A stretch of 41,480 nt of DNA from a virus: the IMG/VR virus record IMGVR_UViG_3300044556_000129; one strand, given 5' to 3'. Below the pieces are notes generated by a model. The model worked only from the letters and a program-made list of their open reading frames with translations. It was not told the origin of the DNA and made no database searches. How positions within the stretch are numbered: the first letter of the stretch is position 1; each line of letters opens with the position of its first letter. Shown here one piece after another: positions 1-41,480 of this stretch. Made by a program: the position numbers and the translations under genes.

Positions 1-127
1 GCACTCTGTAAAATGTTGTCTTCATTGTCAAGTACCCACTTGATACGTTCTTCAAATGGGATTTTGTCAAGCCCTGCAAAGCCCGCACCTGCGATGTAGA
101 ACCATTTTAATGATTCTTCATTTGTCA
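1..127. repeat. Terminal overlap: identical to 41354-41480 (circular assembly artefact)
   Basis: Read directly: gcactctgtaaaatgttgtcttcattgtcaag...tcatttgtca occurs at both window ends. The junction lies inside the RNAP ORF. Confidence 0.95.
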
Positions 128-1418
128 AGGGGCTTGGTTCTGCAAAAAGAAGTAGTGCTTTCTGTGTGTCGTCCCCTTGAGGATTCAAGGCAGGACTCAT
201 TGGATAAATGCGTCCCCTATAATCGAGGTTCCATGGGAAATACACACGTTCGTAAACACTATACTTTTTAGCGCACCCTAACGTGGTATTTGTTCTAAGA
301 ACTTTGGATATTCTTGCTCTTTCATGCTTGTAGTACGCTGACAGGCGTTTTTTATGCGCCTCTAATTCTTTGGGCGTCGGGTCAATCAGACGGGGAATTT
401 TTGGTGTTTCGTCCGTTCTAGGAAGACCACCTAACCCACCATGATTTTCCATGATAGACACCATTGTTTCTAGTACTCGCTCATTGATAATAAATGGTGT
501 AGACTGTAAGGCATTTACACACTTGAAAACCCATGTCAAATCTAATTGCTCACATTTTTTTAAATAATGTTCCATGAACGTATTCTTTTGATTAAAATTA
601 GCACGGATGAAATGTGCAAAGGGGGCATTAGCTCCGTAATAAGCACCTTCCCACACTGTTGTCCACGGTTTAGGAGGGATGACACAAGGACTAAACTTAT
701 AACTATTCAACGCCATAATATCAATACTTTTCGCCCATGTCTGTACAAGCCAGTCATTCGCTTTGAGTAGCTTTCGATTCCCTTCTGCTTTATAGTCAAA
801 GTAGCCACTCCCTTGTATTACCGCTTCAAGGATAACAGTCATTAACTTATACAGCCCTTCTTTATCCATAGTTTGCGGCGTGAATTTCATAGTTTTATAT
901 GCTTTTCGTGCATATTGCACTTTAAATGTCATTTGCATACGGTGTTTTAGCCCATCTTCAAAAAATGCCCCATCTTGTCGTGTTGCTTGCTTTAAGTATT
1001 CGTAGCTAATAACTTCTTCCGTGAACGTAGACACAAGTTCATGTAAGTTACTGTTAAAGTCTACATATGTATCCTCCGAGTTATGCATGACAAACCCTAT
1101 CAAAGTGTTTAGAGTGGAGGTTATGCACGTCTTAATAAGTGTGTCTTCGCCCCCTTCATATAAGCTTTTAAGCTGATTTACAACACCTTGATATTTAGGC
1201 ACTACGCCACACTTTTTTTGGGGAAATAAAACGCTTTTAACGTTCATATAACAATCTGAAAAGACATGCTCCATCAGCTTACTACCTAATTTCGTTTCCC
1301 CTGCTGTGCCTTTTAAAGTCGCTTGTTCATATGTAGCACGTAGCACTTTTTCTGCAAAATCTTTTGATTCCTGCTCCAGCTTTAACTGCTCTTGCATAGT
1401 TCCTTTGATTTTTTCCAT
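1..1418 (-). CDS. T7-like single-subunit DNA-directed RNA polymerase, N-terminal part (continues at 41353 across the circular junction; about 869 aa in total)
   Basis: ATG at 1418-1416 is preceded by GGAAGG. The minus frame is in phase with ORF 40162..41319 after removing the 127-bp overlap. Hand translation of 126-300 gives VYFPWNLDYRGRIYPMSPALNPQGDD, matching T7 RNAP WFPYNMDWRGRVYAVSMFNPQGND. Confidence 0.95.
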   Translation of the reverse strand, partial: MEKIKGTMQEQLKLEQESKDFAEKVLRATYEQATLKGTAGETKLGSKLMEHVFSDCYMNVKSVLFPQKKCGVVPKYQGVVNQLKSLYEGGEDTLIKTCITSTLNTLIGFVMHNSEDTYVDFNSNLHELVSTFTEEVISYEYLKQATRQDGAFFEDGLKHRMQMTFKVQYARKAYKTMKFTPQTMDKEGLYKLMTVILEAVIQGSGYFDYKAEGNRKLLKANDWLVQTWAKSIDIMALNSYKFSPCVIPPKPWTTVWEGAYYGANAPFAHFIRANFNQKNTFMEHYLKKCEQLDLTWVFKCVNALQSTPFIINERVLETMVSIMENHGGLGGLPRTDETPKIPRLIDPTPKELEAHKKRLSAYYKHERARISKVLRTNTTLGCAKKYSVYERVYFPWNLDYRGRIYPMSPALNPQGDDTQKALLLFAEPSPLTNEESLKWFYIAGAGFAGLDKIPFEERIKWVLDNEDNILQS

Positions 1419-1456
1419 GGTATTACCTTCCTTTCTAGTAGGTGGAACAATTAACA

Positions 1457-1479
1457 TTTCTTCAATACGTGGCACAATT
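1457..1479 (-). promoter_or_regulatory. Phage RNAP promoter-like element P1, upstream of the RNAP gene
   Basis: The minus strand reads AATTGTGCCACGTATTGAAGAAA. It belongs to a six-copy family with T7-like architecture (AT-rich 5' part, then GAAGAAA). Confidence 0.6.
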
Positions 1480-1545
1480 GATTTCATGAAAGCAAACTAA
1501 TGTTCGATGCTTGATTAAAAAATAATAAAGATAGACAACAATCAT

Positions 1546-1929
1546 CTATCCCCGAACTTTTGTTTGGTGCTTAGGGTATAAATGTGGCGTGTCCTTGTTG
1601 TGATAACAGCGACGAGGTGCGGAGCCATCATATTCCTGCCACAAATGGCACATTTCATGCACCAATGTGGAATAGACTTCTTTGTCGGTTCTTTCGCCAT
1701 CCTTGAGGATGTAATCGGGATTGAGGGCAATTTCACCCCACTGTTCAACACCTTTGGCGTCCGTCCAAATCGAGGGTACGTAATAACCAAATGTATTGCG
1801 TTCGCGGTTTAAAGACAACATAACTTGTGGCAGGCTGTCTTTAAATAATGCTTCGTTGTAATAATCGAATGCCCCCTGTAAAGATTCATACTGTTTTTCT
1901 GTTGGTTTAACTAAAATTTTAGGTTCCAT
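1546..1929 (-). CDS. SprT-like zinc metalloprotease domain protein (early gene)
   Basis: 127-aa ORF with an HExxH motif (LVHEMCHLWQ) in an SprT-like context. RBS GGAAGGAAGG lies upstream. Confidence 0.6.
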   Translation of the reverse strand: MEPKILVKPTEKQYESLQGAFDYYNEALFKDSLPQVMLSLNRERNTFGYYVPSIWTDAKGVEQWGEIALNPDYILKDGERTDKEVYSTLVHEMCHLWQEYDGSAPRRCYHNKDTPHLYPKHQTKVRG

Positions 1930-1953
1930 AATGTACCTTCCTTCCTTGTAAAA

Positions 1954-2025
1954 TGGCTTGTCTCATCAGTATGGCGATTGCCAATCTACCATAGACAAGG
2001 GATTTTAGTCCCCTGTTTCGACACT
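1954..2025 (-). ncRNA. Hammerhead ribozyme, type II topology (HH-A)
   Basis: Minus strand: AGUGUC-GAAA-CAGGGGA-CUAAAA-UCCCUUG-UC^UAUGG-UA-GAUU-GGC-AAUC-G-CCAUA-CUGAUGAG-ACAAGCCA. The full catalytic core is present (CUGAUGA, GAAA, GUC cleavage triplet). Predicted cleavage is after C at 1994. Confidence 0.85.
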
Positions 2026-2278
2026 ATGCAAGAAAGATAAACATATAGAACTTTCCATCTCGATTAATACATATGTATTTACCTACGTCCTCTATATAGT
2101 CAGCTTTTCGTAAAAAATAGGTAGTACAAGAGGGTTCCATACGATTGAGGGGTTTAAAATGAGTGATTGAAAACGACATTCTTCCCTTATGAAAAATTCC
2201 CACGTCAGCAGTGTAACAATCAGTCCTACATACAACTTTTTTTCCTTCTAAAGCTTTATACATTTCTGTTCTTGTCAT
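2024..2278 (-). CDS. Hypothetical 84-aa protein flanked by the two hammerheads
   Basis: ATG ORF with RBS AGAGAGG upstream. Its stop codon UAG overlaps the first nucleotides of HH-A. Confidence 0.55.
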   Translation of the reverse strand: MTRTEMYKALEGKKVVCRTDCYTADVGIFHKGRMSFSITHFKPLNRMEPSCTTYFLRKADYIEDVGKYICINRDGKFYMFIFLA

Positions 2279-2304
2279 GATATATTACCTCTCTTTCAAT
2301 TCAT

Positions 2305-2376
2305 TGGCTTGTCTCATCAGTAGGCAGGTTGCCAGCCTTTCCTAGACACGAGGTTTTAACCCCGTGTTTCGACACT
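2305..2376 (-). ncRNA. Hammerhead ribozyme, type II topology (HH-B)
   Basis: Minus strand: AGUGUC-GAAA-CACGGGG-UUAAAA-CCUCGUG-UC^UAGG-AA-AGG-CUGGCAA-CCU-G-CCUA-CUGAUGAG-ACAAGCCA. The core is identical to HH-A, with compensatory changes in stems I and III. Predicted cleavage is after C at 2345. Confidence 0.85.
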
Positions 2377-2738
2377 TATTTCATATAAACTTTTAACAAT
2401 GTTTTAAGTGCCTTGTTTTCTGCGCGTAGTGCTTGTAATTCCTGTTGAATATGCTGTGCTTCTACTTTTCTGTCTATTTCTTTCTGGTGCTTTTCTATAA
2501 TTTGTGCCTTGTAGTTTTCCGTTTCTTCGTTTATACTTTGTGTTACTTTTTGTACTCGTTGTTTCCAGCGATTAATATAGTTCGGCAAGATGTCGTATTT
2601 TTTAGCTAATTCTTTTCTAGTACTTCCTGCTTCATATTCTTTAACTACCATTGCTTTAAACTCAGGTGTAAATCCCCTCCGTGTGCAGGTAAAGATTTTG
2701 TTAGCATTGATTTTTTGTGTAGTTTCTAAGTTTGTCAT
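2376..2738 (-). CDS. HTH DNA-binding protein, IS3 OrfA-like (HTH_Tnp_1 type) with a leucine zipper; first gene of the early operon
   Basis: RRGFTPEFKAMVVKEYEAGSTRKELAKKYDILPNYINRWKQ resembles the IS3/IS911 OrfA HTH, and the C-terminus is a heptad Leu coiled coil. No DDE transposase ORF follows. Confidence 0.6.
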   Translation of the reverse strand: MTNLETTQKINANKIFTCTRRGFTPEFKAMVVKEYEAGSTRKELAKKYDILPNYINRWKQRVQKVTQSINEETENYKAQIIEKHQKEIDRKVEAQHIQQELQALRAENKALKTLLKVYMK

Positions 2739-2757
2739 AATAAATTACCTCCCATTA

Positions 2758-2881
2758 TTTGTAGTGTTGTTTGAGATTAAAAAAAAATATTTTGTAGTGT
2801 TTTGTAGTGCCTTTCGACTTGACCAAAGTATATCAAACAACACTACATTTGTCAATATAATTTTTGTAGTTTTTTGTAGTG
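2758..2881. promoter_or_regulatory. Operator-like repeat array: TTTGTAGTG x5 direct (2758, 2791, 2801, 2863, 2873) plus one inverted TGTAGTG (2841-2847)
   Basis: Read directly in the divergent intergenic region. The copies overlap both promoters. Confidence 0.6.
2827..2855 (-). promoter_or_regulatory. Sigma70-type early promoter (leftward) for the operon leading to RNAP
   Basis: Minus strand reads TTGACA, a 17-nt spacer (AATGTAGTGTTGTTTGA), then TATACT. The spacer contains a TGTAGTG operator copy. Confidence 0.6.
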
Positions 2882-2907
2882 ACTTTTAAAATTATTTTTG
2901 CTATAAT
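2879..2907 (+). promoter_or_regulatory. Sigma70-type promoter (rightward) for the RHH gene, with an extended -10
   Basis: GTGACT, 17-nt spacer, TGcTATAAT. The -35 overlaps operator copy 2873-2881. Confidence 0.55.
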
Positions 2908-2934
2908 AGAATATATAATAAAAGAGGTGATAAA

Positions 2935-3108
2935 ATGAGCAATCAAAAAATGGAAAATTCAGTCTTTATGCAAATTCGTATTGAGAAAGACACACGTGAC
3001 AAATTTAGGAAACTTTGTAAAGAGAAAGCAATTAATAGTAGTGAATTATTACGTATGCTTATACTCAAGTGGATAAAAAATAATGAGAAAGAATCAAGAC
3101 ACAAGTAA
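2935..3108 (+). CDS. Ribbon-helix-helix (Arc/CopG-like) DNA-binding protein, 57 aa (below the ORF-track cutoff)
   Basis: Hand translation: MSNQKMENSVFMQIRIEKDTRDKFRKLCKEKAINSSELLRMLILKWIKNNEKESRHK. RBS AGAGGTGA lies 5 nt upstream. The pattern is beta-strand then two helices. Confidence 0.6.
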   Translation: MSNQKMENSVFMQIRIEKDTRDKFRKLCKEKAINSSELLRMLILKWIKNNEKESRHK

Positions 3109-3121
3109 TATAGACACAAAA

Positions 3122-3157
3122 AGGCCCCACATAAGCGTAAATGCTCATGTAGGGCCT
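3122..3157. terminator. Bidirectional intrinsic terminator between convergent genes
   Basis: AGGCCC.ACAT.AGC...GCT.ATGT.GGGCCT hairpin flanked by an A-run on the left and a T-rich run on the right. Confidence 0.6.
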
Positions 3158-3166
3158 ATTCTTTAT

Positions 3167-3490
3167 CTATCTATCATGTTTTTGATCAAAGACAACATTA
3201 TTCATATTTTCTATCATTCTTAACTGTGATATATCTTTATCAAGCAGATCTAAATATATACATATCTCTTCTAAATAGTGATTTTCTAATGATATTTTGA
3301 ATAAATTAAGTATTGTCATTATCAAAGCTACATCCAGTTTGTTGTCTTTATTATTGATTGTGTATAAAGCATAAACACAAGCAACCTCTAATAAATAAAA
3401 ATGTTGTTTCATCTTTACATATTTAAAGTAAGTCACAAAAAGAATAAATAAAGTTAATAGAAGACACGCAATAATTATTTTGTTCACCAT
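3167..3490 (-). CDS. Small membrane protein, AT-rich moron-like gene
   Basis: N-terminal TM segment (IIIACLLLTLFILFVTYF). ATG at 3490 with RBS AAGGAAG; the ORF track starts at GTG 3499. It is visibly more AT-rich than its neighbours. Confidence 0.45.
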   Translation of the reverse strand: MVNKIIIACLLLTLFILFVTYFKYVKMKQHFYLLEVACVYALYTINNKDNKLDVALIMTILNLFKISLENHYLEEICIYLDLLDKDISQLRMIENMNNVVFDQKHDR

Positions 3491-3594
3491 TTCCGACACT
3501 TCCTTTATGATATTTTATACCCCTATCATATCACAAATATCTCCGTGTGTCTTTGTGTCTTCTCATTGTGTCTATTAGATACTATACAGTGTTA

Positions 3595-3612
3595 TTGTAT
3601 TGGCTACTACAA
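3595..3612 (-). repeat. 18-nt element copy 1 (minus-strand sense TTGTAGTAGCCAATACAA)
   Basis: Matches 3962-3979 in inverted orientation (17/18) and 25721-25738. Confidence 0.8.
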
Positions 3613-3615
3613 AGG

Positions 3616-3675
3616 TACTAAGAGAGTCTAAGAGGTACTAAGCGATACTAAGAGAGTCTAAGAGGTACTAAGCGC
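3616..3675. repeat. 2 x 30-bp tandem repeat containing six CTAAG motifs at exact 10-bp spacing
   Basis: tactaagagagtctaagaggtactaagcg(a/c) occurs twice. CTAAG starts at 3618, 3628, 3638, 3648, 3658 and 3668. Confidence 0.9.
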
Positions 3676-3891
3676 ATACCAACAGATGACAGAACACATG
3701 TAAAACCACGATTGAACAAAATTTCAAAAAACAACAGATAACCTCATGCCACTCATGAACATATGAACAACTATTCATATATAAAAAGAAACAGATAGTC
3801 AACTAGTAGATTCAGTCAACTATCTAAAAATAAACATACAAATTCTACACGCTTCCGTGCGTATCATATAAAAATCATCTGCGCTCCCACC

Positions 3892-3920
3892 TTGACAAGC
3901 ACGTAATAAGCACTTATAAT
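3892..3920 (+). promoter_or_regulatory. Perfect consensus sigma70 promoter facing the integrase gene
   Basis: TTGACA (3892-3897), 17-nt spacer, TATAAT (3915-3920). The spacer contains ATAAGCACT, the inverted copy of the AGTGCTTAT repeat. Confidence 0.7.
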
Positions 3921-3961
3921 ACTTGTAGAGCTTGATAGTAAGCGATACAGTATTTTACAGG

Positions 3962-3979
3962 TTGTAATAGCCAATACAA
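3962..3979 (+). repeat. 18-nt element copy 2 (TTGTAATAGCCAATACAA) in the integrase leader
   Basis: Read directly. Confidence 0.8.
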
Positions 3980-4071
3980 TTAAGGTTGACTAGGTGCCAT
4001 GGTGTACAATAAGAGAGGAAAAGACTGAAAAGATACTATAGGTACTGTAAAAGTACGGAGCGGCCAAAACG

Positions 4072-4131
4072 AAGGCCATACGGGGGAAAACGGAATCGGA
4101 AGCCCGACACGTAAGGCCTTACAGATTTTTT
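4072..4131 (+). terminator. Terminator/attenuator-like hairpin plus U-run in the integrase leader
   Basis: AAGGCC-TACG-GGG...CCC-CGTA-GGCCTT followed by ACAGATTTTTT. Paired by hand only. Confidence 0.3.
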
Positions 4132-4196
4132 AGAATTTTTAAAGTCCGAAGCGTATCCAAGCGCTTCCAAGCGTACTCGAAAGGAGAAGACACACA

Positions 4197-5306
4197 ATGC
4201 CAAGAACACGACAAAGAAGAAATAAGGGTGAGGGTTCGATAACCAAGACACCCAATGGAAAGTACAAAGCAACCATTACGATTGGAGTTGGAATTGATGG
4301 TAAGCAAAAGAGAAAGTCTGTAACTAGAGACACCAAGCGAGAAGTAATAGACGCCATCACGGAGCTAAGACACAAATATAACATAGGTGATGTATCAAAA
4401 GTGGTGTCTAAGAGCGTCGAGGACGTTTGTGATGAATTTTTAGACATCAAGGAGCAAGCTGTGTCTTTAGCTACCTTTAAATCGTATAGGACACACATTA
4501 ATGCCTTCAAAGAAGTATTTGGGGGTATGATGATAGATAATGTAACAAAGACCATGATTGAGGATTATTATAAATCATTGATAAATAGTCCACATCATTA
4601 TAAATCATCATCCCTGCGGACGAAAAAGACAGTGTTGTCTTCCCTCTTCAACGAAGCGAAGCGTGCAGGATATATAAAGGACAACGTATGGGATACTGCG
4701 AATATACAACTAAAGCGTGTCTTACCCAAAGCGGCCACTATGGTTCTTCCGACACCTGAGCAGTTCCAAAAGCTCTTAGAGGAAGCGGAAAAGTATGCTC
4801 ATTGGTATTATGTACTCCTCTATCTGGCTTCTGTTACTGGAATGAGACGAGGAGAGCTATTAGGTCTTAAATGGGAATGTGTGGATAAAGACACCAAGAC
4901 TATCACCATCAATAATCAATTAAATATAGAAGGTGTCGACAGTCCGTTAAAGACACCTGCATCCTATAGGACAATTTATGTAACCCCAAAGGCATTTGAG
5001 GCTTTAGACACCCTACCTAATAAAAGTCCCTATGTCTTTTCAAGGGACAATGGGATGTTTCGGCCTGTATCGGTGTCATGGCTACAGGAGATTAATGCTG
5101 TTGTCTTTAAGGCCGCTCATATGCCAAAAGGATTTACATTTCATGACATAAGACACTATCATGCCACCCAGCTTTTAAAACATGGTATAAATCCAAAGGT
5201 GGTGAGCAGGAGATTAGGACACACATCTGTGGTTACGACGCTCAATCTGTACTTTAATTATCTTCCCAGTATGGACGAGGAAGCAAGCACAATCTTAGAT
5301 GAATGA
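4197..5306 (+). CDS. int: Tyrosine recombinase / phage integrase
   Basis: 369 aa with catalytic signature R (TGMRRGELLGLKW), HxxR (HDIRHYHATQL) and H...Y (LGHTSVVTTLNLYFNY). RBS AAAGGAGAAG. Confidence 0.93.
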   Translation: MPRTRQRRNKGEGSITKTPNGKYKATITIGVGIDGKQKRKSVTRDTKREVIDAITELRHKYNIGDVSKVVSKSVEDVCDEFLDIKEQAVSLATFKSYRTHINAFKEVFGGMMIDNVTKTMIEDYYKSLINSPHHYKSSSLRTKKTVLSSLFNEAKRAGYIKDNVWDTANIQLKRVLPKAATMVLPTPEQFQKLLEEAEKYAHWYYVLLYLASVTGMRRGELLGLKWECVDKDTKTITINNQLNIEGVDSPLKTPASYRTIYVTPKAFEALDTLPNKSPYVFSRDNGMFRPVSVSWLQEINAVVFKAAHMPKGFTFHDIRHYHATQLLKHGINPKVVSRRLGHTSVVTTLNLYFNYLPSMDEEASTILDE

Positions 5307-5350
5307 GTGCTTATTAAGTGCTTATATGAGAAACAGGCACGAGTGCATGA

Positions 5351-5404
5351 AATTATAAATGGCTAAAAATAGCGGTTGTTCGCTGTTCTTAGCTATTTAT
5401 AATT
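5351..5404. terminator. Long AT-rich hairpin between convergent int and the HTH gene (bidirectional terminator-like)
   Basis: 24-nt arms aattataaatggctaaaaatagcg / cgctgttcttagctatttataatt pair at 21 of 24 positions, with a 6-nt loop. Confidence 0.55.
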
Positions 5405-5472
5405 TTATAAATAACAATGGATAGAATGTGATAAAATAGCCATTTAACAAGTGTTTAAGTGCTTATAGGTGC

Positions 5473-5715
5473 TTATAAGGTAATACTGGTGTCTATTGCA
5501 TGACGCAAGAACTCGTATAGTCCTTTGCGGTGTATTCTCCAATGAGTACCTATTTTGAAGGCTTTCAATGCTTCATTATAACATAGAGCATACACGGTTG
5601 ATAAGGGGACACCAAGCATCTCTGAAACTTCTTTTGGGGAGAAGGTTAGTCTGTTGTCCCATTTATGAGAGGGGGTATAGGTGAAATCATCAACATCAAT
5701 ATTTAAATAGGCCAT
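5473..5715 (-). CDS. Excisionase-family/MerR-like HTH protein (about 80 aa from the internal ATG)
   Basis: EVSEMLGVPLSTVYALCYNEALKAFKIGTHWRIHRKGLYEFL matches the HTH_17/excisionase pattern. ATG at 5715 has RBS AAAGGAG. The longer ORF-track start at 5829 lacks an RBS. Confidence 0.6.
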   Translation of the reverse strand: MAYLNIDVDDFTYTPSHKWDNRLTFSPKEVSEMLGVPLSTVYALCYNEALKAFKIGTHWRIHRKGLYEFLRHAIDTSITL

Positions 5716-5868
5716 AAGGCTCCTTTCGTAGACTAAAGGAAATCTTAGTAGACTTGAGATATGAAAGAATAGTAAAGAATCTTTAAGAATCTCTTTCTTT
5801 GATTTATCATCATCATCAACAATCATCATTAAAGAATCTCTAGTCCCATATATGTCCGAATAATAAAT

Positions 5869-5902
5869 ATGAGGTTCTAGCCATCATCGGCTAGAACCTC
5901 AT
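5869..5902. other. Perfect 14-bp stem hairpin (6-nt loop) in the terminase-distal non-coding region
   Basis: atgaggttctagcc-atcatc-ggctagaacctcat. Confidence 0.8.
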
Positions 5903-5938
5903 AGATTCTATTAGATACTATATATACTTTTCGTCCCC

Positions 5939-5961
5939 TTTCTTCAGTACGTGGCACAATT
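5939..5961 (-). promoter_or_regulatory. Phage RNAP promoter-like element P2
   Basis: Minus strand reads AATTGTGCCACGTACTGAAGAAA. Confidence 0.55.
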
Positions 5962-5971
5962 CTTTTTTTTG

Positions 5972-5990
5972 TTAATATGTGGCACAATTA
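5972..5990 (-). promoter_or_regulatory. Degenerate phage promoter-like element P3
   Basis: Minus strand reads TAATTGTGCCACATATTAA. It lacks the GAAGAAA initiation region. Confidence 0.35.
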
Positions 5991-5998
5991 ATTTTGCA

Positions 5999-7946: not shown

Positions 7947-8399
7947 TCATCCTCTCTCCATACTACATACTTTTAAATCTTTGTGTGTCTTCCCGAATAT
8001 AATAATAGCACTAGGGAAAGGCGCACTATTCTTACTGTTTCCAAACTTCAAACGCCCTTTGATGAAGCGAATTTCATCCGCTTTCATTGCATAGTCATGC
8101 CACCATTTTGTGTCTGTGCGTGAAGGTACAAGACAGACAACTGTTGTCTTTGCTTCCATAGCTTTCTTCATCCATGCCCCTATTTTTTTTCCGTATGGTG
8201 GGTTCATCCAACAGACACCCTGCCAATCATGGGATAAACCATCGTCAAGGGGTGAAAAGAACTTAGAGCATTTCGCATTTTCAGGTGTGGCACATACATC
8301 TATATCAAAATGAAACTCATCATTCAATCGATTAAATAAATCCTGTGGTGTCTCCCATACTTCACTCTCACTACTATACAAAACACTATTAATAGTCAT
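7947..8399 (-). CDS. Phage Dam-type DNA N6-adenine methyltransferase
   Basis: EVWETPQDLFNRLNDEFHFDIDVCATPENAKC...CWMNPPYG (NPPY catalytic motif). Confidence 0.88.
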   Translation of the reverse strand: MTINSVLYSSESEVWETPQDLFNRLNDEFHFDIDVCATPENAKCSKFFSPLDDGLSHDWQGVCWMNPPYGKKIGAWMKKAMEAKTTVVCLVPSRTDTKWWHDYAMKADEIRFIKGRLKFGNSKNSAPFPSAIIIFGKTHKDLKVCSMERG

Positions 8400-8434
8400 A
8401 TATCCTAACCCCTTTGCGAATTTAAAAATAATAA

Positions 8435-8471
8435 AAGGCTCCCATAGGTAATCACACCTAACAGGAGCCTT
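8435..8471 (-). terminator. Intrinsic terminator
   Basis: Minus strand: AAGGCTCC-21 nt-GGAGCCTT followed by TTTTATTATTTTT. Confidence 0.6.
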
Positions 8472-8498
8472 TGTTCTTGAATCATCACCACAGTCGTC

Positions 8499-8699: not shown

Positions 8700-8789
8700 G
8701 TTTTTTCTCCTCTATCACGTTCCAATGGCGTTTTTAGACACATATCATTGTCCTTAGGATAAATTACCCATGGGCAAAAATAACTTTTC

Positions 8790-35033: not shown

Positions 35034-35577
35034 TTTTCACCCTCTTTTTCCAAAATTTGTGTGTCTCATCCAAGAAGAAAGGACGAACATCAACTAAATT
35101 ATCTTGTGCGTCAAGACGATGAATTGTCGAGATTCGATAGAACCTCTGATTTGTCCGTGTACTTTCAAGACCACCTAATGTATTAACATAAGGGCCTGTC
35201 TTTAACCATGTACAATGACCTTCCAAAGCAATCATCTTGTCGCGTTCTTCATCATCACTACCACTGTAAATTCCTACGGGAGCAATATCAGACAAAGCAG
35301 ATAATAGAGAAATCAAGGATTCTGCTGTGATATGTTTGTTATTTGTACCGCCCATTACAACAATGGCGTTTGCCCCTGCATCAATGGCATCCTGCGCTCC
35401 TTCTAAAATATCAAGAAAGGATGTTAAGGGAACATCTTCTTCCTGTAATTCGGGACTATGACATCCAACGCAATGTTGTTTGCACGCTCCTAATTCAATA
35501 GCATATGCCATCTTATCGGGCAGTTCGTTAAATGTAATGTCTGTGTTCACAACAGGGTACTTTAAAACTCTTGACAT
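35023..35577 (-). CDS. nrdG: Anaerobic RNR activating protein (radical SAM)
   Basis: Cluster motif CKQHCVGC (CxxxCxxC), located directly upstream of nrdD. Confidence 0.8.
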   Translation of the reverse strand: MSRVLKYPVVNTDITFNELPDKMAYAIELGACKQHCVGCHSPELQEEDVPLTSFLDILEGAQDAIDAGANAIVVMGGTNNKHITAESLISLLSALSDIAPVGIYSGSDDEERDKMIALEGHCTWLKTGPYVNTLGGLESTRTNQRFYRISTIHRLDAQDNLVDVRPFFLDETHKFWKKRVKNVT

Positions 35578-37154
35578 GTTTCATCTTCCTCTCCTAGTAA
35601 TCTGTGTCTGTCCTTATCCCAATGGAGATACCCTGCAAGCCCTGTTGAACCTGCAAAGCGATTCTTTAAGACACGAATTTTAATTAAGTTTCTTTCGGAC
35701 TCATCTTCTGCCTGTTGATTGCGTTCGAGTGCTATTACCTCATCGGGTAACTGCTTCAATGTGCCACTCCCTCGCAAGTCATCAAGTGAGATAATGCCCC
35801 CTTCTTCAAAGGATTTTTCACCACTTGTCTTTTTCAAGTGTGAAATGACAATCATCCCAACTCCCGTTTCTTCTACAAGGGAGCGGAGCTGTGTCATCAA
35901 TTTATCAATGGTCTTCCTCTCATCCCCACCTTCATCCATGCCTGATACGGCAATAGATATGTGGTCAAAGATGATAAAATCACACTGTTCTGCAACTGCT
36001 AAATAGCGTATACGAGACAACAAGTTACCACTCTCGATAGAGCCAAAATGGTCATATAAGACAAAGCGTTTATCGCTGAATAGCTCTTCATATGCTGTCT
36101 TTAACTTTTCTTTGTCTACACTCCCCCATATAATAGACAGGGGCTTTTCAACATGGATAGACAGCAATTCACGGAGTGTCTTCTTTGGGTTTTCTTCGAG
36201 AAAGACAAGCCCTATTTTCAGACCATCTTTCACCTTGAGTTTATAAGCAATCTCTCGCGCCGCTGTAGACTTACCAATGCCTGTGCCGGCTGTCAACATC
36301 ACAAGCTCCCCTTTACGGAGTCCCTTCGTGATATTTTTCAACCCCTTGCACCATGGGTAGTCATAACACTTAGCTTCTGTGTCATCACTGAAAAATTCAT
36401 CTTCAATGTCAGCGGCATTGATAATCCCATCGGGCCTATATTCCTTAGCGGTAAAGATAGCCTGTATGATTGCATCTCCTTTACCTGCCACAAGACACGC
36501 ATTAGCATCTTTTTCGGGTAAGTCTGCAATCTTTAGTTTGTGTGGAGACAACATCCCCTGCACATCCTCGACTGCCTTTCGTCCCTGAGCGTCCATATCA
36601 AACATGACAATGACCTCATCAAAGGACTCCAACCATTCGAGGTTTTCTTTAAAGGTACGTTTAGCCGACGTACAACCATGAGGCAAAGACACAACAGGCC
36701 ACTTGTTGCCCCCCATCTGTGATACGGTCAGACAATCAATCTCTCCCTCTGTAATGACAAGCTTCTTTCCATTATGGAAAAGGTTCTGTCCAAAGAAGCG
36801 GTAAGCAGAGGTTCCATTCAAATAAAACTTCTTGTCCTTTGTCCGTAACTTCTGAAAAAGTACAGAACCGTCCTCATCACAATACTCTGCGACTTGAACG
36901 GTTCCTAACTGCGTATGTGTTACATAGTAGTTGTACCTTTTGCACGTTTCAGCAGTAATCCCCCGTGCACGGAGTGTCTTAAAATCCATGTCCTCATGAG
37001 GAATAATGGCGTGTTTAGCCACCTCTTCACCTTCTTTCGGAAACTCTGTATGATGACAACTGAAACAGTATGTGTGTCCATCATCATACAATGTAGCGGC
37101 ATCATGGCTTCCGCAATACGGACACGGAATATGCGCCTGTACAATTTCCGACAT
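35562..37154 (-). CDS. Bifunctional primase-helicase (T7 gp4-like)
   Basis: N-terminal Cys4 zinc finger CPYCGSHD...CFSCHH, a TOPRIM region (VITEGEIDCLT...MFDMDAQG), Walker A LTAGTGIGKST and Walker B DFIIFDHIS. Confidence 0.93.
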   Translation of the reverse strand: MSEIVQAHIPCPYCGSHDAATLYDDGHTYCFSCHHTEFPKEGEEVAKHAIIPHEDMDFKTLRARGITAETCKRYNYYVTHTQLGTVQVAEYCDEDGSVLFQKLRTKDKKFYLNGTSAYRFFGQNLFHNGKKLVITEGEIDCLTVSQMGGNKWPVVSLPHGCTSAKRTFKENLEWLESFDEVIVMFDMDAQGRKAVEDVQGMLSPHKLKIADLPEKDANACLVAGKGDAIIQAIFTAKEYRPDGIINAADIEDEFFSDDTEAKCYDYPWCKGLKNITKGLRKGELVMLTAGTGIGKSTAAREIAYKLKVKDGLKIGLVFLEENPKKTLRELLSIHVEKPLSIIWGSVDKEKLKTAYEELFSDKRFVLYDHFGSIESGNLLSRIRYLAVAEQCDFIIFDHISIAVSGMDEGGDERKTIDKLMTQLRSLVEETGVGMIVISHLKKTSGEKSFEEGGIISLDDLRGSGTLKQLPDEVIALERNQQAEDESERNLIKIRVLKNRFAGSTGLAGYLHWDKDRHRLLGEEDETCQEF

Positions 37155-37156
37155 GG

Positions 37157-37489
37157 CTAGTCGTCCCCATAATGTACATCAAGAGTATATTTGTTCTTAA
37201 TGTCCCTCATGGTCTTTCGCTGTGCATCGGACATGTCCTTTTCATTAGCACATCCGACCAACAACACATAGATGGAATCTTTCACATGAGCGAGTCTATA
37301 GTCACCGTAAGCGAGGAAGGGAATCCCTTCTTTCACTTCACCATTCGGCATCACAATCAAATGATATCCGATATTGAACAGTCCTTCTCGCCGCTGTTCT
37401 ACATAAATTTCCCGAACGGTCTTTACCTTCGGTTCAAATAAGACACGCACCATATTAGTTTCCTCTCTTTCTTTGTACTTCAAATTCAT
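37157..37489 (-). CDS. T7 lysozyme (gp3.5)-like protein lacking the zinc ligands; probably not an amidase
   Basis: VREIYVEQRREGLFNIGYHLIVMPNGEVKEG...SIYVLLVG...SDAQRKTMRDI aligns with T7 gp3.5 VREIRQWHKEQGWLDVGYHFIIKRDGTVEAG...SIGVCLVG...TPAQMQSLRSL. The segments carrying His17, His122 and Cys130 are absent. The start could be 37489 or 37453. Confidence 0.6.
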   Translation of the reverse strand: MNLKYKEREETNMVRVLFEPKVKTVREIYVEQRREGLFNIGYHLIVMPNGEVKEGIPFLAYGDYRLAHVKDSIYVLLVGCANEKDMSDAQRKTMRDIKNKYTLDVHYGDD

Positions 37490-37504
37490 TTTCTCACCCC
37501 AATA

Positions 37505-37935
37505 TTATTTTTTCTTTTTGGGGATAAGACCTTTCATATGTTTCTTAGGCTCTCTAAACCATGCATCAGGGATTTGTCGGGTTGAGTATTTAAACCCATT
37601 TTTTTCCGCCCAATCTGCATATGTTGTTTTGCTACCTTTATATAACTTCAACTTCGGATTTTGGAAGACAAAGCGTATATCCAAATCAGGGTACTGCATT
37701 TTGATAAGTAAGTGCTTTTGTCTGTCTTCCCTTTCAAAAACCCCTTTAGCTTCTATAATGATACCGTTAGGAAGCACAAAATCAGGAGTATACTTATGCT
37801 TCGTAGTAGGCTTTTCATACTGAATATAGTACATCTCATACTTTTCCTGCTTCTTTAACTCCCGAATTTGAGCGCTAATGGTGTCTTCAAAATGACTTCT
37901 TTTTTTAGGTGGTCTGTATGTGTACGCACCCCCAT
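37505..37935 (-). CDS. Endonuclease I / Holliday junction resolvase (T7 gp3-like); the N-terminal part needs a -1 shift at A7 (37900-37906) or a non-ATG start
   Basis: YTPDFVLPNGIIIEAKGVFEREDRQKHLLIKMQYPDLDIRFVF aligns with T7 gp3 YTPDFLLPNGIFVETKGLWESDDRKKHLLIREQHPELDIRIVF. The homology (RSHFEDTISAQI versus RSGLEDKVSKQL) continues upstream of the first in-frame ATG at 37834. Confidence 0.85.
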
Positions 37936-37970
37936 TACAAAAACTTCGTCTCAGGTCTTATCACCACACT

Positions 37971-38600
37971 TTAAAAATCTTCATCATCCGAACCATCCGT
38001 GAACGGTACATCTACGTCAGAACGTGTGTCTTCTTCATCATCATCAATAACAGACGTAGAATCAAACGCCCCTTCGTGCTTCTTGAAACCGAAAGAGCTT
38101 GCATCCTGTCCATTACCATACGGAATGTATTTCAACAACTGAACCGCCTGTAAGCGGAAAGACACACCAAAATTTTTCGATGTATTGTAATACGGAAAGA
38201 GCTGATAGGCTACTGCAACAACACTACCATTCCCAATAGAACTCTTGATTTTTCTAGTGACAGGGCGCTCGGCACCATCAAAGACAGGGACAACTTTATC
38301 AATTTCTTTGCCAGCCTTTGTCACAATATGAGCGTTGGTAACAAATTTGACACTTGCATCCCCATTATCATCTTCACGATACGAACCCGTATTAGGCTCT
38401 GCGGCAAACTTCTTATTCTTGAGGGTTTCTTTAAATTCTTCCCAAATCGTCTGTGCTTCCTGCATCAAGTTATTCATATCTTCAACAGACGGAACAAGCG
38501 TAATGCTAAATTTGTTTGTGTCTGTGCCATTAAAAGTTTCTGTGTCTGCTAAATGGCACCACATAGCTTTCCCTGTAATTACACCATCATTCATATTCAT
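37971..38600 (-). CDS. ssDNA-binding protein (T7 gp2.5-like)
   Basis: 209 aa, at the gp2.5 position. It has an acidic C-terminal tail ending in an aromatic residue (...DVPFTDGSDDEDF), like gp2.5. Confidence 0.7.
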   Translation of the reverse strand: MNMNDGVITGKAMWCHLADTETFNGTDTNKFSITLVPSVEDMNNLMQEAQTIWEEFKETLKNKKFAAEPNTGSYREDDNGDASVKFVTNAHIVTKAGKEIDKVVPVFDGAERPVTRKIKSSIGNGSVVAVAYQLFPYYNTSKNFGVSFRLQAVQLLKYIPYGNGQDASSFGFKKHEGAFDSTSVIDDDEEDTRSDVDVPFTDGSDDEDF

Positions 38601-38614
38601 GTTTCATTTCTCCT

Positions 38615-38848
38615 TTACAATAATTTTGTACGAGTAATTAAAATCATGCCATCGGCATTTTCAAGTAATAAATCCGTGATGGCTGTCTTAATGCCATCAT
38701 CAAGCTTCATGTGCTTTCTACGAGCTTTTGCGGCGATTACGCCTAAAAGACACAATGTATCGTTGTCGTATGCACCATTATTTAAAAAGTGCATGAGCTT
38801 ATTTGCGTATGCAACATAAGGTTTATTCGAGGTTCCCTTCATGTTCAT
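38615..38848 (-). CDS. Hypothetical 77-aa protein
   Basis: The internal ATG 38848 has RBS AAGGAGAA. The longer track ORF would overlap the upstream gene. Confidence 0.45.
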   Translation of the reverse strand: MNMKGTSNKPYVAYANKLMHFLNNGAYDNDTLCLLGVIAAKARRKHMKLDDGIKTAITDLLLENADGMILITRTKLL

Positions 38849-38873
38849 TTCTCCTTTTTTTTTGTAGTGGTCA

Positions 38874-39344
38874 TTACAATTCGATACGTTCCCCGTTCTT
38901 GACTGCATCTAACCACTTTTCATAGACACGAATTTTATCCCAATCAGCGCGCATTTCTTCATCAGTACCTTTATGTCCTGCACGAATACGATATTTAAGA
39001 ATATTCCCTTTTAGGAAGCCAATAAGTTCCTCATGACTAAAGAAGTTCTGCATAACAAGGATAGGTTCAACAATAGCATTTCGATAATGTTTATCATGCA
39101 TGGTGTCCTTTGGAGTGTCTTCTTTTGTGTCTTTAGGCATATCCACTTTTTCACCCGTCAATGTAAGTTGATTAACATCAACAAGAATAGGTTTATCCAT
39201 GTCTAAAAAATCTACATAACATAAATTAGGTGCGTTTTCAACAATTTCAACAACTACTGCGTATCCACTTTCATGTGGTGCTACACTCACAGGCCGATCA
39301 GACATATCTACCCATACCTTTTTTCCTGCATTTATTTTCCCCAT
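38874..39344 (-). CDS. DUF3310-like phage protein
   Basis: The C-terminal KHYRNAIVEPILVMQNFFSHEELIGFLKGNILKYRIRAGHKG pattern recalls DUF3310. Recalled from memory only. Confidence 0.4.
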   Translation of the reverse strand: MGKINAGKKVWVDMSDRPVSVAPHESGYAVVVEIVENAPNLCYVDFLDMDKPILVDVNQLTLTGEKVDMPKDTKEDTPKDTMHDKHYRNAIVEPILVMQNFFSHEELIGFLKGNILKYRIRAGHKGTDEEMRADWDKIRVYEKWLDAVKNGERIEL

Positions 39345-39349
39345 TTCCT

Positions 39350-39841
39350 CTAGTCCTTTCCTGTGCTTCCGAAACCTTCATGTGTCCCTACTTTTGTAAG
39401 GAAATCCACTTCCACTAATTCGTTCGGAACGTTCTCAACTAACATAATTTGTGCAATGCGTTCACCCTTATTAATACGGGTAACACTGCTACCGATATTT
39501 TCAACAAGCAAAAACAATTCATCAACATAGTCACTATCAACAATCCCTGTGCCGTTGGCTAGTCTCAGTTTTGTTTTTAAACCTGTAGAAGAACGAACAA
39601 AAACTTCTAAATGGTATCCTTCGGGAATCTCAAAAGCTACCCCCGTTGGCACCTTATATGCTTCATCTTGCCCTCTTTGGGGGTATAACGTCACTGTGTC
39701 ATTTGCGAATACATCATAGCAAGCGGCGGACGCTGTAGCCTTGTAAGGTGCTTTCGCATCAGGTGTGATACGTGTAAATTTTAAAGACACACTAGATTTA
39801 GAAGTTGTCTTTCGTCGCTTGCGTACTGTTGCTTCTGTCAT
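39350..39841 (-). CDS. dut: dUTP diphosphatase (trimeric dUTPase)
   Basis: Motifs VRSSTGLK and GTGIVDSDYVDE, plus a C-terminal GFGSTG. Confidence 0.85.
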   Translation of the reverse strand: MTEATVRKRRKTTSKSSVSLKFTRITPDAKAPYKATASAACYDVFANDTVTLYPQRGQDEAYKVPTGVAFEIPEGYHLEVFVRSSTGLKTKLRLANGTGIVDSDYVDELFLLVENIGSSVTRINKGERIAQIMLVENVPNELVEVDFLTKVGTHEGFGSTGKD

Positions 39842-39874
39842 GTTTTATGCTCCTTTCAAAAGCTGAATACTTTC

Positions 39875-39897
39875 TTTCTTCACTACGTGGCACAATT
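39875..39897 (-). promoter_or_regulatory. Phage RNAP promoter-like element P4
   Basis: Minus strand reads AATTGTGCCACGTAGTGAAGAAA. It is part of a direct repeat of about 36 bp shared with P5. Confidence 0.65.
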
Positions 39898-39921
39898 AAA
39901 AAGACACCACGGAATACTTTC

Positions 39922-39944
39922 TTTCTTCACTACGTGGCACAATT
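39922..39944 (-). promoter_or_regulatory. Phage RNAP promoter-like element P5
   Basis: Identical to P4. Confidence 0.65.
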
Positions 39945-40050
39945 AAATGTTTGTGTCTTATCGTCCGATAAAGAGAAAAAGACACACAAAAAGAGAAATA
40001 TTTAAAATTATTTATATTAATTATTAATTATCATCAATAATAAATAATAA

Positions 40051-40117
40051 AAGAACTATAAGTATCTTAAAGTACTTTTAAGTATATATAGTTACTTTAA
40101 GTATCTTATAGTTCTTT
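40051..40117. repeat. AT-rich imperfect inverted repeat (about 25-nt arms) between phage promoters; origin-like
   Basis: aagaactataagtatcttaaagtac ... gttactttaagtatcttatagttctt. The surrounding region 39985-40120 is almost pure A/T. Confidence 0.6.
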
Positions 40118-40123
40118 TCTCTT

Positions 40124-40146
40124 TTCTTCACTACGTGGCACAATTA
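40124..40146 (-). promoter_or_regulatory. Phage RNAP promoter-like element P6, immediately downstream of the RNAP gene
   Basis: Minus strand reads AATTGTGCCACGTAGTGAAGAAA. Confidence 0.65.
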
Positions 40147-40161
40147 CAAATCATGTTATAT

Positions 40162-41480
40162 TTATGCAAAGCAATACTTACTATTTACTACATCATCAAG
40201 ATTTAAGTTCCCTTTCGATGGTATTTTAGGTATTTCTTTTCCTTCGGGGAGCAAGTACTCAACATCCTTTAACCATTCCTCTAAGTAATTGTGGTCTTTG
40301 TACATATTGACTAATTCAGTACGAATAGACTTAAATAAGTCCCCTGCATGTTCTATATCTGTACCAAAACTATCATGAATCATGAAGAAGTTGATATTTC
40401 CTTTTTCAGCTTGATTCATGATTACTCTTTGCATGTGACACGCATCCATACTGTGGATAAAGTTAGGGGCGATTGCTTGGGCTTGTCCCCTTGTGTCTAT
40501 GTTGGTGCTATCTTGGGGAACATAGATACGAATGAAACCACCATTAAAGCGCATACGGCATGTTTCCATGTTAGGTACAAATTTATTCTGTTGGATTGGT
40601 AAGCCATTGGGGCTTGTCCATGCTACGACTTCTCCGTTCTTTCCAATAAGAGAAGCGACCTTTTTCAGCCATTCCATGCCCTCTACGGCCTTTACAACCG
40701 TGGTGGTTACAGCGTCCCAAATCAATTTTGCCATGTAGTTTGCGGCCTGTGAGCGACTCAAGAAGATAGGGCTGTCTTTATGTTCATCAATCCATGGCTT
40801 GATAATGTCGGACTTGAGGTTTTCGGAGAAACCATACGTCCTTGAACCATACGCAAGAGTCATGACAGAACGCTTGCAAACTTTACGCTTGATACCGTCC
40901 GAACCGAATTTCTCGCGGCCATACATCAGCCATTCAGACGCAAGTTCTTTTGTGCCATATGCAATGCACTTTTTGCCCTTGTTGTCAAGTACATATTCGC
41001 CTGTTTTCTTATCTTTTTTGAAGTCATCTGCTGTCCCCTCTAATGCGTCTTTATGTAAGACAACGTTTACTTTATCAGCCACGACTTGATAAATATCATG
41101 AACTTTTTCATCGGGTATAAGATTTACATTTTTTCCACCCACTTCATCAGCAAGAAGCATGGAGAAGTGTTGCAAACCTGAACACGTTCCATCAAAGCTA
41201 ATTGGAAGTCCCGACTTGTAGCCAATTGCGGAACCGTTGTGTTCTGCTTGATAGACACGGAGTCTTTCAAATTCAAAACAGAAAGACAAGAAGCACATAG
41301 GACTTTCGTCACCTGCCACTTCGTTCCACCACGTGTACGTAAGAGGGGAAGCGGCACTCTGTAAAATGTTGTCTTCATTGTCAAGTACCCACTTGATACG
41401 TTCTTCAAATGGGATTTTGTCAAGCCCTGCAAAGCCCGCACCTGCGATGTAGAACCATTTTAATGATTCTTCATTTGTCA
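40162..41480 (-). CDS. T7-like single-subunit RNA polymerase, C-terminal part (ORF open to the window edge; continues into 1-1418)
   Basis: DESPMCFLSFCFEF...PISFDGTCSGLQHFSMLLADEVGGKNVNL...RSVMTLAYGS...IAPNFIHSMDACHM...FFMIHDSFGT...KGNLNLDDVVNSKYCFA aligns with T7 RNAP DSPFCFLAFCFEY...[29 protein letters not shown]...IAPNFVHSQDGSHL...FALIHDSFGT...KGNLNLRDILESDFAFA. Confidence 0.97.
   Translation of the reverse strand, partial: TNEESLKWFYIAGAGFAGLDKIPFEERIKWVLDNEDNILQSAASPLTYTWWNEVAGDESPMCFLSFCFEFERLRVYQAEHNGSAIGYKSGLPISFDGTCSGLQHFSMLLADEVGGKNVNLIPDEKVHDIYQVVADKVNVVLHKDALEGTADDFKKDKKTGEYVLDNKGKKCIAYGTKELASEWLMYGREKFGSDGIKRKVCKRSVMTLAYGSRTYGFSENLKSDIIKPWIDEHKDSPIFLSRSQAANYMAKLIWDAVTTTVVKAVEGMEWLKKVASLIGKNGEVVAWTSPNGLPIQQNKFVPNMETCRMRFNGGFIRIYVPQDSTNIDTRGQAQAIAPNFIHSMDACHMQRVIMNQAEKGNINFFMIHDSFGTDIEHAGDLFKSIRTELVNMYKDHNYLEEWLKDVEYLLPEGKEIPKIPSKGNLNLDDVVNSKYCFA
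41354..41480. repeat. Second copy of the 127-bp terminal overlap
   Basis: Exact repeat of 1-127. Confidence 0.95.

Follow-up and report, generated by a model that had tools for sequence, protein, structure and literature searches.

A nine-fold over-represented hexamer in a temperate T7-like gut phage: a candidate priming site of its gp4-type primase

The genome and the hexamer

The subject of this analysis is IMG/VR virus record IMGVR_UViG_3300044556_000129 (41,480 nucleotides of DNA, the whole of which is called the window below) and one short word in it, the hexamer AGACAC with its complement GTGTCT, for which the phage's own gp4-type primase is the proposed reader. The window is the genome of a temperate T7-like podovirus from the gut, and its relatives form a clade of temperate T7-like gut phages; INPHARED holds no cultured close relative (top primase identity ~49%). 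Positions 1-127 are identical to 41354-41480, which marks a circularly permuted assembly with a unique genome of 41,353 bp. The gene of the T7-like RNA polymerase occupies the assembly junction, and the small plus-strand open reading frames (ORFs) in 56-1500 are spurious. Three genes are needed from the outset:

40162-41353 joined to 1-1418, minus strand: T7-like RNA polymerase gene, 870 codons, crossing the assembly junction
35562-37154, minus strand: gp4-type primase-helicase gene (Pfam Helic-prim_T7_N, Toprim_2, DnaB_C), the proposed reader of the motif
4197-5306, plus strand: int, the integrase gene, densest carrier of the motif (10 copies, 9.0 per kb)

The primase-helicase belongs to a replication set that also comprises a gp2.5-like single-stranded DNA-binding protein, endonuclease I, a family-A DNA polymerase and a 5'-3' exonuclease, and with which the genes for nucleotide metabolism (NrdD and its radical-SAM activase, dUTPase) are listed. 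The structural and packaging genes are those for a T7-type portal, scaffold, capsid, tail tube, internal virion proteins and terS/terL, and there are further genes for a Dam-family methyltransferase, a GH25 lysin, a Firmicute-type holin and a tyrosine integrase. The phage promoter, AATTGTGCCACGTAGTGAAGAAAG, is present in five copies.

Abundance of the word

An exact census of the plus strand finds AGACAC 66 times and GTGTCT 91 times, in all 157 copies against 17.9 expected from base composition. No other hexamer of the 2,080 (strands collapsed) reaches this 8.8-fold excess, and AGCGGC, at 4.9-fold, is the highest of the unrelated ones; the terminal duplicate holds no motif, so that the 41,353-bp genome likewise has 157. 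A sequence-only reading of the window had put the excess at about tenfold, a claim that is borne out at this figure. Its per-gene counts are right for int (10), gp12 (11) and nrdD (6) and off by one for the primase-helicase gene (6 rather than 7) and terL (5 rather than 4), their sum of 38 being unaffected.

That reading had also held that the excess is not a codon-pair effect, and had proposed a k-mer census against codon-preserving shuffles as a check. With each protein sequence and the codon usage of each gene kept (400 synonymous-codon shuffles of a corrected set of 47 coding sequences), AGACAC on the sense strand is observed 86 times against 22.7 (3.8-fold, z 14.9, rank 2 of 4,096) and GTGTCT 56 times against 8.5 (6.6-fold, z 18.1, rank 1 of 4,096). 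The two words combined occur 142 times in coding DNA against 31.2 ± 5.1 (z 21.9), and the maximum over the shuffles is 46. Shuffling whole codons gives z values of 21-24. Enrichment extends to each of the six frame/orientation classes (z 3.3-12.9), and the word is as much a feature of non-coding DNA (4.25 per kb) as of coding DNA (3.74 per kb), as the sequence-only reading had surmised. In phage T7, taken as a control, the top hexamer is at most 3.2-fold enriched by composition and the maximum shuffle z is 6.5.

The proteins of the phage bear the mark of the word. Frame 2 (xxA GAC ACx, read as Asp-Thr) accounts for 57 of the 86 sense sites, and Asp-Thr is, as had been suspected, the most over-represented dipeptide (100 against 56.5), encoded as GAC-AC[A/C] in 62 cases out of 100 although GAT is the more common Asp codon. 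Selection thus works on the nucleotides themselves, whatever the frame or strand and outside genes as well, and its effect reaches the proteins.

The least probable of all explanations, that the excess simply follows from base composition, from codon usage or codon pairs, from dipeptides or from a dispersed repeat, can point to the prevalence of the Asp-Thr frame, but it is refuted by shuffles that preserve codons and proteins and still leave a z of about 22, by the enrichment of all frame/orientation classes and of non-coding DNA, by the lack of any conservation past ~10 nt, and by the different conduct of a true codon-pair effect in the same genome. The latter is provided by AGCGGC (34 copies on the plus strand, for example in 13091-17768), which was considered as a strand-biased Chi sequence for its resemblance to the Bacillus subtilis Chi AGCGG and rejected: its sense-strand form GCCGCT occurs 33 times against 5.4 after synonymous shuffling and lies in frame 0 in 30 of 31 cases, which makes it a frame-locked GCC-GCT (Ala-Ala) codon-pair preference.

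Anatomy and distribution of the motif

On the A/C-rich strand the extended consensus is (A)-A-G-A-C-A-C-[A/C]-[A/C], and on the template strand 5'-KKGTGTCT(T)-3' (K, G or T). The information lies in GACAC (235 against 61.9 expected) and AGACA (316 against 90). At the two positions 5' of the core, A is preferred and G or C avoided; at the two positions 3' of the hexamer (+1 and +2), A or C is found in 75-79% of the window's sites, and in every class of site: 63/86 and 63/86 for sense, 41/55 and 47/55 for antisense, 14/16 and 14/16 for non-coding copies. Flanking composition is at background by -3 and +3, so that the site is ~8-10 nt long and asymmetric. A longer hidden or dispersed repeat (of the REP or MITE kind) was considered and rejected, as no conservation extends past ~10 nt and no repeat family accounts for the copies. 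The template-strand sequence and the plus-strand AGACAC copies are:

Template strand: candidate priming sequence carrying the motif, 5'-TTGTGTCTT-3'
456-7445, plus strand: AGACAC at 456, 1029, 2344, 2988, 3097, 3112, 3462, 4188, 4246, 4328, 4368, 4889, 4951, 5006, 5151, 6161, 7445
8213-19714, plus strand: AGACAC at 8213, 8736, 9660, 10015, 11607, 11799, 13390, 13939, 14825, 15668, 15803, 15977, 16270, 16984, 17968, 18792, 19230, 19714
21273-32964, plus strand: AGACAC at 21273, 21503, 21644, 22770, 22881, 23346, 24164, 25685, 26022, 26454, 27686, 28148, 29762, 30656, 32059, 32382, 32964
33860-41253, plus strand: AGACAC at 33860, 34683, 34974, 35669, 36493, 36687, 37441, 38160, 38748, 38924, 39785, 39902, 39980, 41253

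The spread is even, with 1.2-9.0 copies per kb in all genes of more than 500 nt and no clusters above chance. Clustering and regular spacing were both looked for and set aside: one strand is mildly under-dispersed (coefficient of variation 0.72, P 0.0035) and the rest is Poisson-like. There is no dyad or paired-site arrangement (15 close pairs against 16.5 expected), and no strand switch of the kind that would mark an origin or terminus was found, the ratio of the two orientations being constant in direction along the genome. A modest sense-strand surplus of AGACAC over GTGTCT tracks the direction of coding, also in the oppositely oriented int. In L196, a relative that is referred to again below, int likewise is the densest 1-kb bin.

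Conservation in relatives and absence from host DNA

Nineteen close relatives of the phage (85-92% nucleotide identity; not independent samples) retain 76-91% of the motif hexamers intact, against 41-65% of hexamers in the same codon phase, and gains of the motif among them roughly equal losses. At ~72% nucleotide identity, positional conservation is near background (17-25% against 15-17%) and the density is kept. The sites are thus under purifying selection, with selection on density and turnover of sites.

The sequence-only reading had proposed to look for the same bias in related phages and in the host. Related phages share it; host-type DNA has the word at or below expectation. Prophage relatives with host flanks were reached through integrase homologues on long metagenome contigs (an integrase query of GTDB genomes gave no match), and the comparison covers six loci from Veillonellaceae or Selenomonadales together with ~17 kb of host flank proper. 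The two integrated relatives are:

L035, 11287-21113: T7-like prophage in a Firmicute-type chromosome, ~55% GC
L196, 11482-21107: T7-like prophage in a Firmicute-type chromosome, ~55% GC

The prophage in L196 (int 77% identical to that of the window) has 38 copies of AGACAC against 4.8 expected, and the adjoining host DNA, at 55% GC with hslUV-trmFO-topA and an adjoining energy-coupling factor (ECF) transporter, has 2 against 3.9. In L035 (int 56% identical) the words are CGACAC (19 against 3.4) and CGACAA (22 against 4.9), for which its host flank (radC-maf-glnS, 54.6% GC) has 4 against 5.7 and 10 against 4.7, respectively. The shorter word GACAC occurs 12 times against 20.8 and 11 times against 16.6 in the host DNA adjoining the two, and 8-9 times against 27.5 in Veillonella, where it is about threefold depleted, as it is in the Veillonellaceae and Selenomonadales genomes to which the host GlnS is closest. 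Both flanks and all six Veillonellaceae/Selenomonadales loci have the motif word at or below expectation. The enrichment is thus phage-specific, and in the two integrated relatives it ends at the prophage/host junction. The host type appears to be Negativicutes-like: the GlnS of the L035 flank is nearest to Veillonella, Veillonellaceae and Selenomonadales proteins (70-74% identity), the best matches being to Veillonella (72-74%). A related literature search turned up no T7-like prophages of Negativicutes.

Related phages, different words, one grammar

With the primase as bait, loci of 11 primase lineages (52-100% identity) were recovered. Their enriched words are not the same:

Window clade: AGACAC, 8.6x
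L016 and L019: AGACAA and AGACAC, 4.3-5.4x
L020 and L035: CGACAA and CGACAC, 4.4-5.5x
L120 and L125: AGACCC, 5.7-6.8x; AGACAC, 5.3-5.7x; AGACCA, 3.8-3.9x
L133 and L137: CGACAA, 6.5-7.8x

All the strongly enriched words nevertheless fit [A/C]-G-A-C-[A/C]-[A/C], and those of L125 and L137 survive codon shuffling. Words above 3.8-fold are solely AGAC or CGAC followed by [AC][AC], with the one exception that two lineages also have AGACAG; where G or T comes after GAC, counts are at background. Every lineage has, in its enriched words, the template core 5'-GTC-3' (G-A-C in the sense of the primer), with the next two primer positions limited to A or C; in the window the template flanks are G/T-rich as well. 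What distinguishes the lineages is in part the base before the G, A in some and C in others, which corresponds to template T or G immediately 3' of the cryptic C.

The primase of T7 recognizes template 5'-GTC-3', of which the C is cryptic, and extends pppAC on a G/T template; its extended sites GGGTC, TGGTC and GTGTC yield pppACCC, pppACCA and pppACAC, and the cryptic C must be followed, on its 3' side, by one base or more (PMC2910064). G/T-rich flanks strengthen its binding up to 10-fold and lengthen its primers (PMC6136900). The grammar common to the 11 lineages matches this: a G, as the partner of the cryptic C in 5'-GTC-3', and after it a sequence that obeys the primer rule of T7, pppAC(C/A)(C/A).

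Other gp4-bearing phages present words of a different cast. In the MT835557 clade (L033, which is MT835557.1, and L139-L142) the palindromic CTNAG/CCTGAG occurs 85 times against 14 (z 8.9 after shuffling), with GTGTCT/TTGTCT more weakly enriched, and L162 (33% GC) has 104 copies of AGATCT/GATCTA against 12.

The primase

The window encodes a gp4-type primase with a four-cysteine zinc-binding domain and the residues that contact the template. Aligned with the T7 protein, C11, C14, C30 and C33 correspond to C17, C20, C36 and C39, and D25-G26-H27 to D31-G32-H33; the four cysteines and D-G-H are invariant in the alignments. The template contacts of T7 primase are D31, H33, K41 and W42 (PMC10557236). 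The segment after the fourth cysteine, aligned with E40-K41-W42 of T7, is HHT in the window, L003, L016, L019 and L029, and QRT in L020 and L035. Among the window's nearer relatives HHT goes with A before the G and QRT with C, a link that is suggestive only, and L029 narrows the difference to this segment. A gp4-family primase that reads two cryptic bases, set by residues near its third and fourth cysteines, is on record: the Arabidopsis Twinkle (PMC10557236).

Individual copies and an origin-like region

Several copies stand in places where a DNA signal might be looked for, many of which had been singled out by the sequence-only reading (the spacers between Shine-Dalgarno sequence (SD) and start codon, a tandem run, a hairpin and the surroundings of promoters) and are found as follows:

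4188-4193, plus strand: motif between SD and ATG of int
17856-17861, plus strand: motif between SD and ATG of the gene for the 1701-aa virion protein, in repeat D18 (CAT[T/G]GTGTCTTATCTCCTTTC)
23392-23397: twin of the preceding copy, upstream of gp12, also in repeat D18
3547-3573, plus strand: three tandem same-strand GTGTCT (3547, 3555, 3568) in the leftmost non-coding region upstream of early genes
3606-3674: about seven 10-bp iterons (GGTACTAAGAG / AGTCTAAGAG; repeat family D5) beside the tandem run, between the end of the early genes and int
25685-25707, minus strand: hairpin whose arms are an inverted pair of motifs (AAGACAC...GUGUCUU), with a U-run behind it
39842-40161, minus strand: region resembling the T7 primary origin, directly downstream of the RNA polymerase gene

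The hairpin has a folding energy of -15.2 kcal/mol (z -4.0), and none of 200 shuffles folds equally well. The iterons could be operator, arm-type Int or replication sites. A hammerhead ribozyme, of which the motif had been said to form part of stem II, is not supported by Rfam, which finds none even at E <= 1. Two 72-nt repeats between early genes (1954-2025 and 2305-2376, minus strand; 79% identical) fold into a stable hairpin and carry the hammerhead core words CUGAUGA and GAAAC, likewise without a hammerhead match in Rfam at that threshold.

The order of elements in the origin-like region is phage promoter, palindrome, AT-rich stretch and then, on the sense strand, tttttgtGTGTCttttt. A GTGTC lies within a T-run on the sense strand at 39985-39981 and an inverted copy in the 39958-39953 region; at its end are two more promoters (repeat family D3/D4) with a further GTGTC between them, and the copies around promoters span 39902-39985. 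The same architecture, with [G/T]TGTC right behind the AT-rich stretch, recurs in L196, L029 and L035, that is, in four lineages with the window, in L035 as TTGTC/GTGTCG variants. The primary origin of T7 shares this position and layout, and there the gene 4 primase begins the first lagging-strand primers on the displaced strand, which in this region would be the sense strand that carries the GTGTC.

What reads the word?

Our preferred reading, to which we assign a probability of roughly 0.55, makes the motif the place where the phage's own primase, of the T7 gp4 type, prefers to initiate; both the identity of the reader and the role of priming density as the target of selection we infer. The template site would read 5'-(K)(K)GTGTC-T-3'. 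The primase would recognize GTC, with its cryptic C, and the next base 3' as a second cryptic-like position, and it would lay down pppACAC, extendable with A or C, the opposite strand then showing A-G-ACAC-M-M (M, A or C). A site of such length would occur by chance about once per 4-5 kb per strand, so that selection would have multiplied it until each strand has a copy about every 530 nt, genome-wide and inside genes as well as between them, at a cost in the choice of codons and even of amino acids. Single sites persist over short evolutionary times and give way to others over long ones. The primases of related phages would differ slightly in preference, and the genomes would have followed them, to AGACAA, CGACAA/CGACAC and AGACCC/AGACCA. 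This reading is the best supported, as it accounts for the core, for the A/C grammar across lineages, for a site that is asymmetric, for its phage specificity and turnover, and for the copy at the origin-like region. A bolder proposal, which we hold at somewhat less than even odds, is that the clade has rewritten its genomes into a dense, lineage-specific 'priming code' that co-evolves with a gp4-type primase reading an unusually long site (GTC, a second cryptic base and a defined primer). Host DNA being depleted of the word, such a code would, in addition, direct the phage replisome towards phage DNA and so discriminate self from non-self at the level of replication.

A number of observations weigh against the primase. 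There is no lagging-strand bias: the ratio of orientations does not switch along the genome, and both strands are strongly enriched, GTGTCT on the sense strand somewhat more so than AGACAC. If forks travel either way, as they would in replication that is recombination-dependent or circular, such a bias would not be strictly required of priming sites, and enrichment of both strands would fit priming by the primase. T7 fails as a precedent for enrichment: its own sites are weakly enriched in its genome (TGGTCA z 2.8, AGACCA z 3.8), and TGACCA, 2.9-fold over composition, has a z of just 2.5-2.8 after codon shuffling. The Desulfovibrio phage ProddE and most gp4-bearing loci from sea and soil show no enrichment, so that a gp4-type primase is by itself insufficient. 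T7 uses a small fraction of its GTC sites, and the need for one site per 0.5 kb is therefore not obvious; the primase reading does not account for such a density in this clade. In some lineages the A/C extension past the hexamer is missing. The co-variation of zinc finger and base is essentially one evolutionary contrast, and a simple code by which zinc-finger residues would specify the base at -1 failed, as CGACAA occurs in two lineages with unrelated tails. The sequence-only reading had noted that T7 primase favours GTGTC as a template site and that this phage has a primase of the gp4-like, zinc-finger kind; on our evidence the grammar, the residues of the enzyme and the origin copy support the link, the lack of polarity and the scant enrichment in T7 do not, and the step from site to enzyme is again one that we infer.

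The strongest competitor, an unlikely one in our estimation, is a phage protein that binds duplex DNA and organizes or coats the genome, its preference drifting between lineages; it could serve in prophage silencing, compaction, self-marking or partition-like functions. The strand symmetry of the signal would fit such a protein better than it fits the primase, an even spread free from replication polarity and a word that is phage-specific, absent from host DNA and under purifying selection would suit it, and this temperate phage encodes several small DNA-binding proteins: a helix-turn-helix protein (2376-2738), an HTH_17 protein (5473-5829) and, from a 57-aa ORF at 2936-3109, what reads by eye as a ribbon-helix-helix-like protein. 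However, a duplex-binding protein predicts neither the G followed by AC[A/C][A/C] in every lineage nor the one-sided A/C extension, no candidate protein is linked to the motif, and the sites show no dyad or pairing.

The remaining explanations are progressively less likely in the order Chi-like signal, modification target, mutational drive and compositional artefact, molecular drive being given, when weighed by itself, a little more credit than modification. A Chi-like signal that attenuates a nuclease (host AddAB/RecBCD or the phage exonuclease) on phage DNA is more doubtful than the duplex-binding protein. The template form KKGTGTCT is G/T-rich, as Chi sequences are, a word dense on both strands would protect from entry at either end or at breaks, and no T7 gp5.9-like RecBCD inhibitor was identified among the part of the ORFs that was scanned. 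Chi words are, however, normally over-represented in the host genome and strand-skewed. The host DNA beside the two integrated relatives and that of Veillonella are depleted of the word, which disfavours host Chi-like and uptake signals alike; the word differs between phages whose replication proteins are 77-83% identical; L035, of the CGACA type, and L196, of the AGACAC type, both reside in Firmicute-type DNA of ~55% GC; and there is no end-directed gradient of orientation. The Chi-like alternative offered by the sequence-only reading is disfavoured on these grounds.

Non-adaptive molecular drive, in which a bias linked to replication or repair (primer-proximal mismatch resolution, for example) would create the word without a selected function, has a slim chance of being right. 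It would accommodate the balance of gains and losses between close relatives and the shift of the word with lineage, in step with the replication module. It does not account for the retention of existing sites far above the phase-matched background or for a word held against codon preference and altering dipeptide content. In replication of the T7 type, moreover, RNA primers are removed and resynthesized, so that we know of no route by which the sequence of a primer could be written into DNA.

That the word is a target of DNA modification is very improbable. A Dam-family N6-adenine methyltransferase is encoded (7947-8399, minus strand; PF05869, 2e-31) and could be the enzyme in question, and the word has adenines on one strand, but modification offers no reason to enrich its own target. 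Enzymes of the PF05869 family are typically GATC-specific, and the window strongly avoids that word, with 18 copies of GATC where 149 would be expected.

Other features of the genome

Besides the avoidance of GATC, many palindromes of 6 bp are missing from the window, GAATTC and CTTAAG each occurring 0 times against 13 expected. The T7-type major capsid gene is split by a group I intron (Rfam RF00028, 64.4 bits, E 3e-14) on the minus strand:

24905-25491, minus strand: group I intron
25465-25653 and 24024-24734, minus strand: ORFs flanking the intron
24946-25464: 172-aa ORF inside the intron, possibly a homing endonuclease

The match of the downstream ORF to the Gp10A-like profile is limited to positions 40-274. 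Between the tail-tube and capsid genes (23977-24020, minus strand) lies a sub-threshold Rfam match to sroE (25.5 bits, E 0.08), which is probably just the terminator-like hairpin located there. A tail-fibre-like gene of 571 aa on the minus strand has a 21-nt (7-aa) periodic repeat in nine copies (11800-12184). Its motif density, 1.7 per kb, is among the lowest, which would fit recent acquisition of the gene.

Known systems and significance

Among systems in which a short word serves as a signal, the priming sites of T7 gene 4 primase come nearest, sharing the GTC core with its cryptic C, the AC[A/C][A/C] grammar of the primer, the G/T flanks of the template, an enzyme of the same family with its Cys4, Asp and His conserved, and a copy beside an AT-rich, promoter-linked, origin-like region. 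They differ in that the T7 genome is barely enriched (z <4, against 15-18 for each strand word in the window), in that the site of the window is effectively 6-8 nt, with the base 3' of the cryptic C specified, and in that the preferred word changes between lineages. For that additional 3' base (T or G) the Arabidopsis Twinkle (template 5'-(G/C)GGA-3') may serve as precedent, since there, too, the gp4-family zinc finger reads a second cryptic nucleotide by means of residues next to the third and fourth cysteines; it is an organellar enzyme with another sequence, and no genome-wide enrichment of its site was found reported.

Chi sites (RecBCD/AddAB) are likewise short G/T-rich words, dense and set at the nucleotide level regardless of coding, but they are a property of the host, enriched there and strand-skewed, whereas the word of the window is depleted in the host, specific to phage lineages and without polarity. 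DNA uptake sequences (the DUS of Neisseria and the USS of Pasteurellaceae) resemble it in being strand-symmetric, genome-wide and maintained through turnover, with some pairs forming terminator hairpins as at 25685-25707, and differ in being 9-12 nt long and enriched in host chromosomes, in contrast to a phage-confined word of 6-8 nt. The host flanks and the Veillonella loci bear no such Chi or uptake-sequence signature. FtsK-orienting polar sequences (KOPS) and other words that impart architecture are also short genomic words co-evolving with a reader protein, but they are strongly strand-skewed relative to replication, and the word of the window is not.

To our knowledge, primase sites have been known from the biochemistry of a handful of enzymes and not as sequences that shape whole genomes. 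Full-text literature searches turned up neither this word nor a genome-wide excess of primase sites in any phage, which is not proof of absence; as far as we have found, the type of site was already known, and the genome-shaping density and lineage-specific co-variation are new. If the primase is indeed the reader, this clade would present a natural experiment in the co-evolution of primases and their sites, with at least five site variants, and the primase specificity of uncultured phages could be predicted from genome k-mer statistics alone. A replication signal would then be strong enough to bias the composition of proteins, and one would ask why these phages need priming sites at 0.5-kb intervals along each strand when T7 does without them. 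Even if the primase is not the reader, a roughly nine-fold enriched, selected, phage-specific word that varies between sister lineages calls for explanation.

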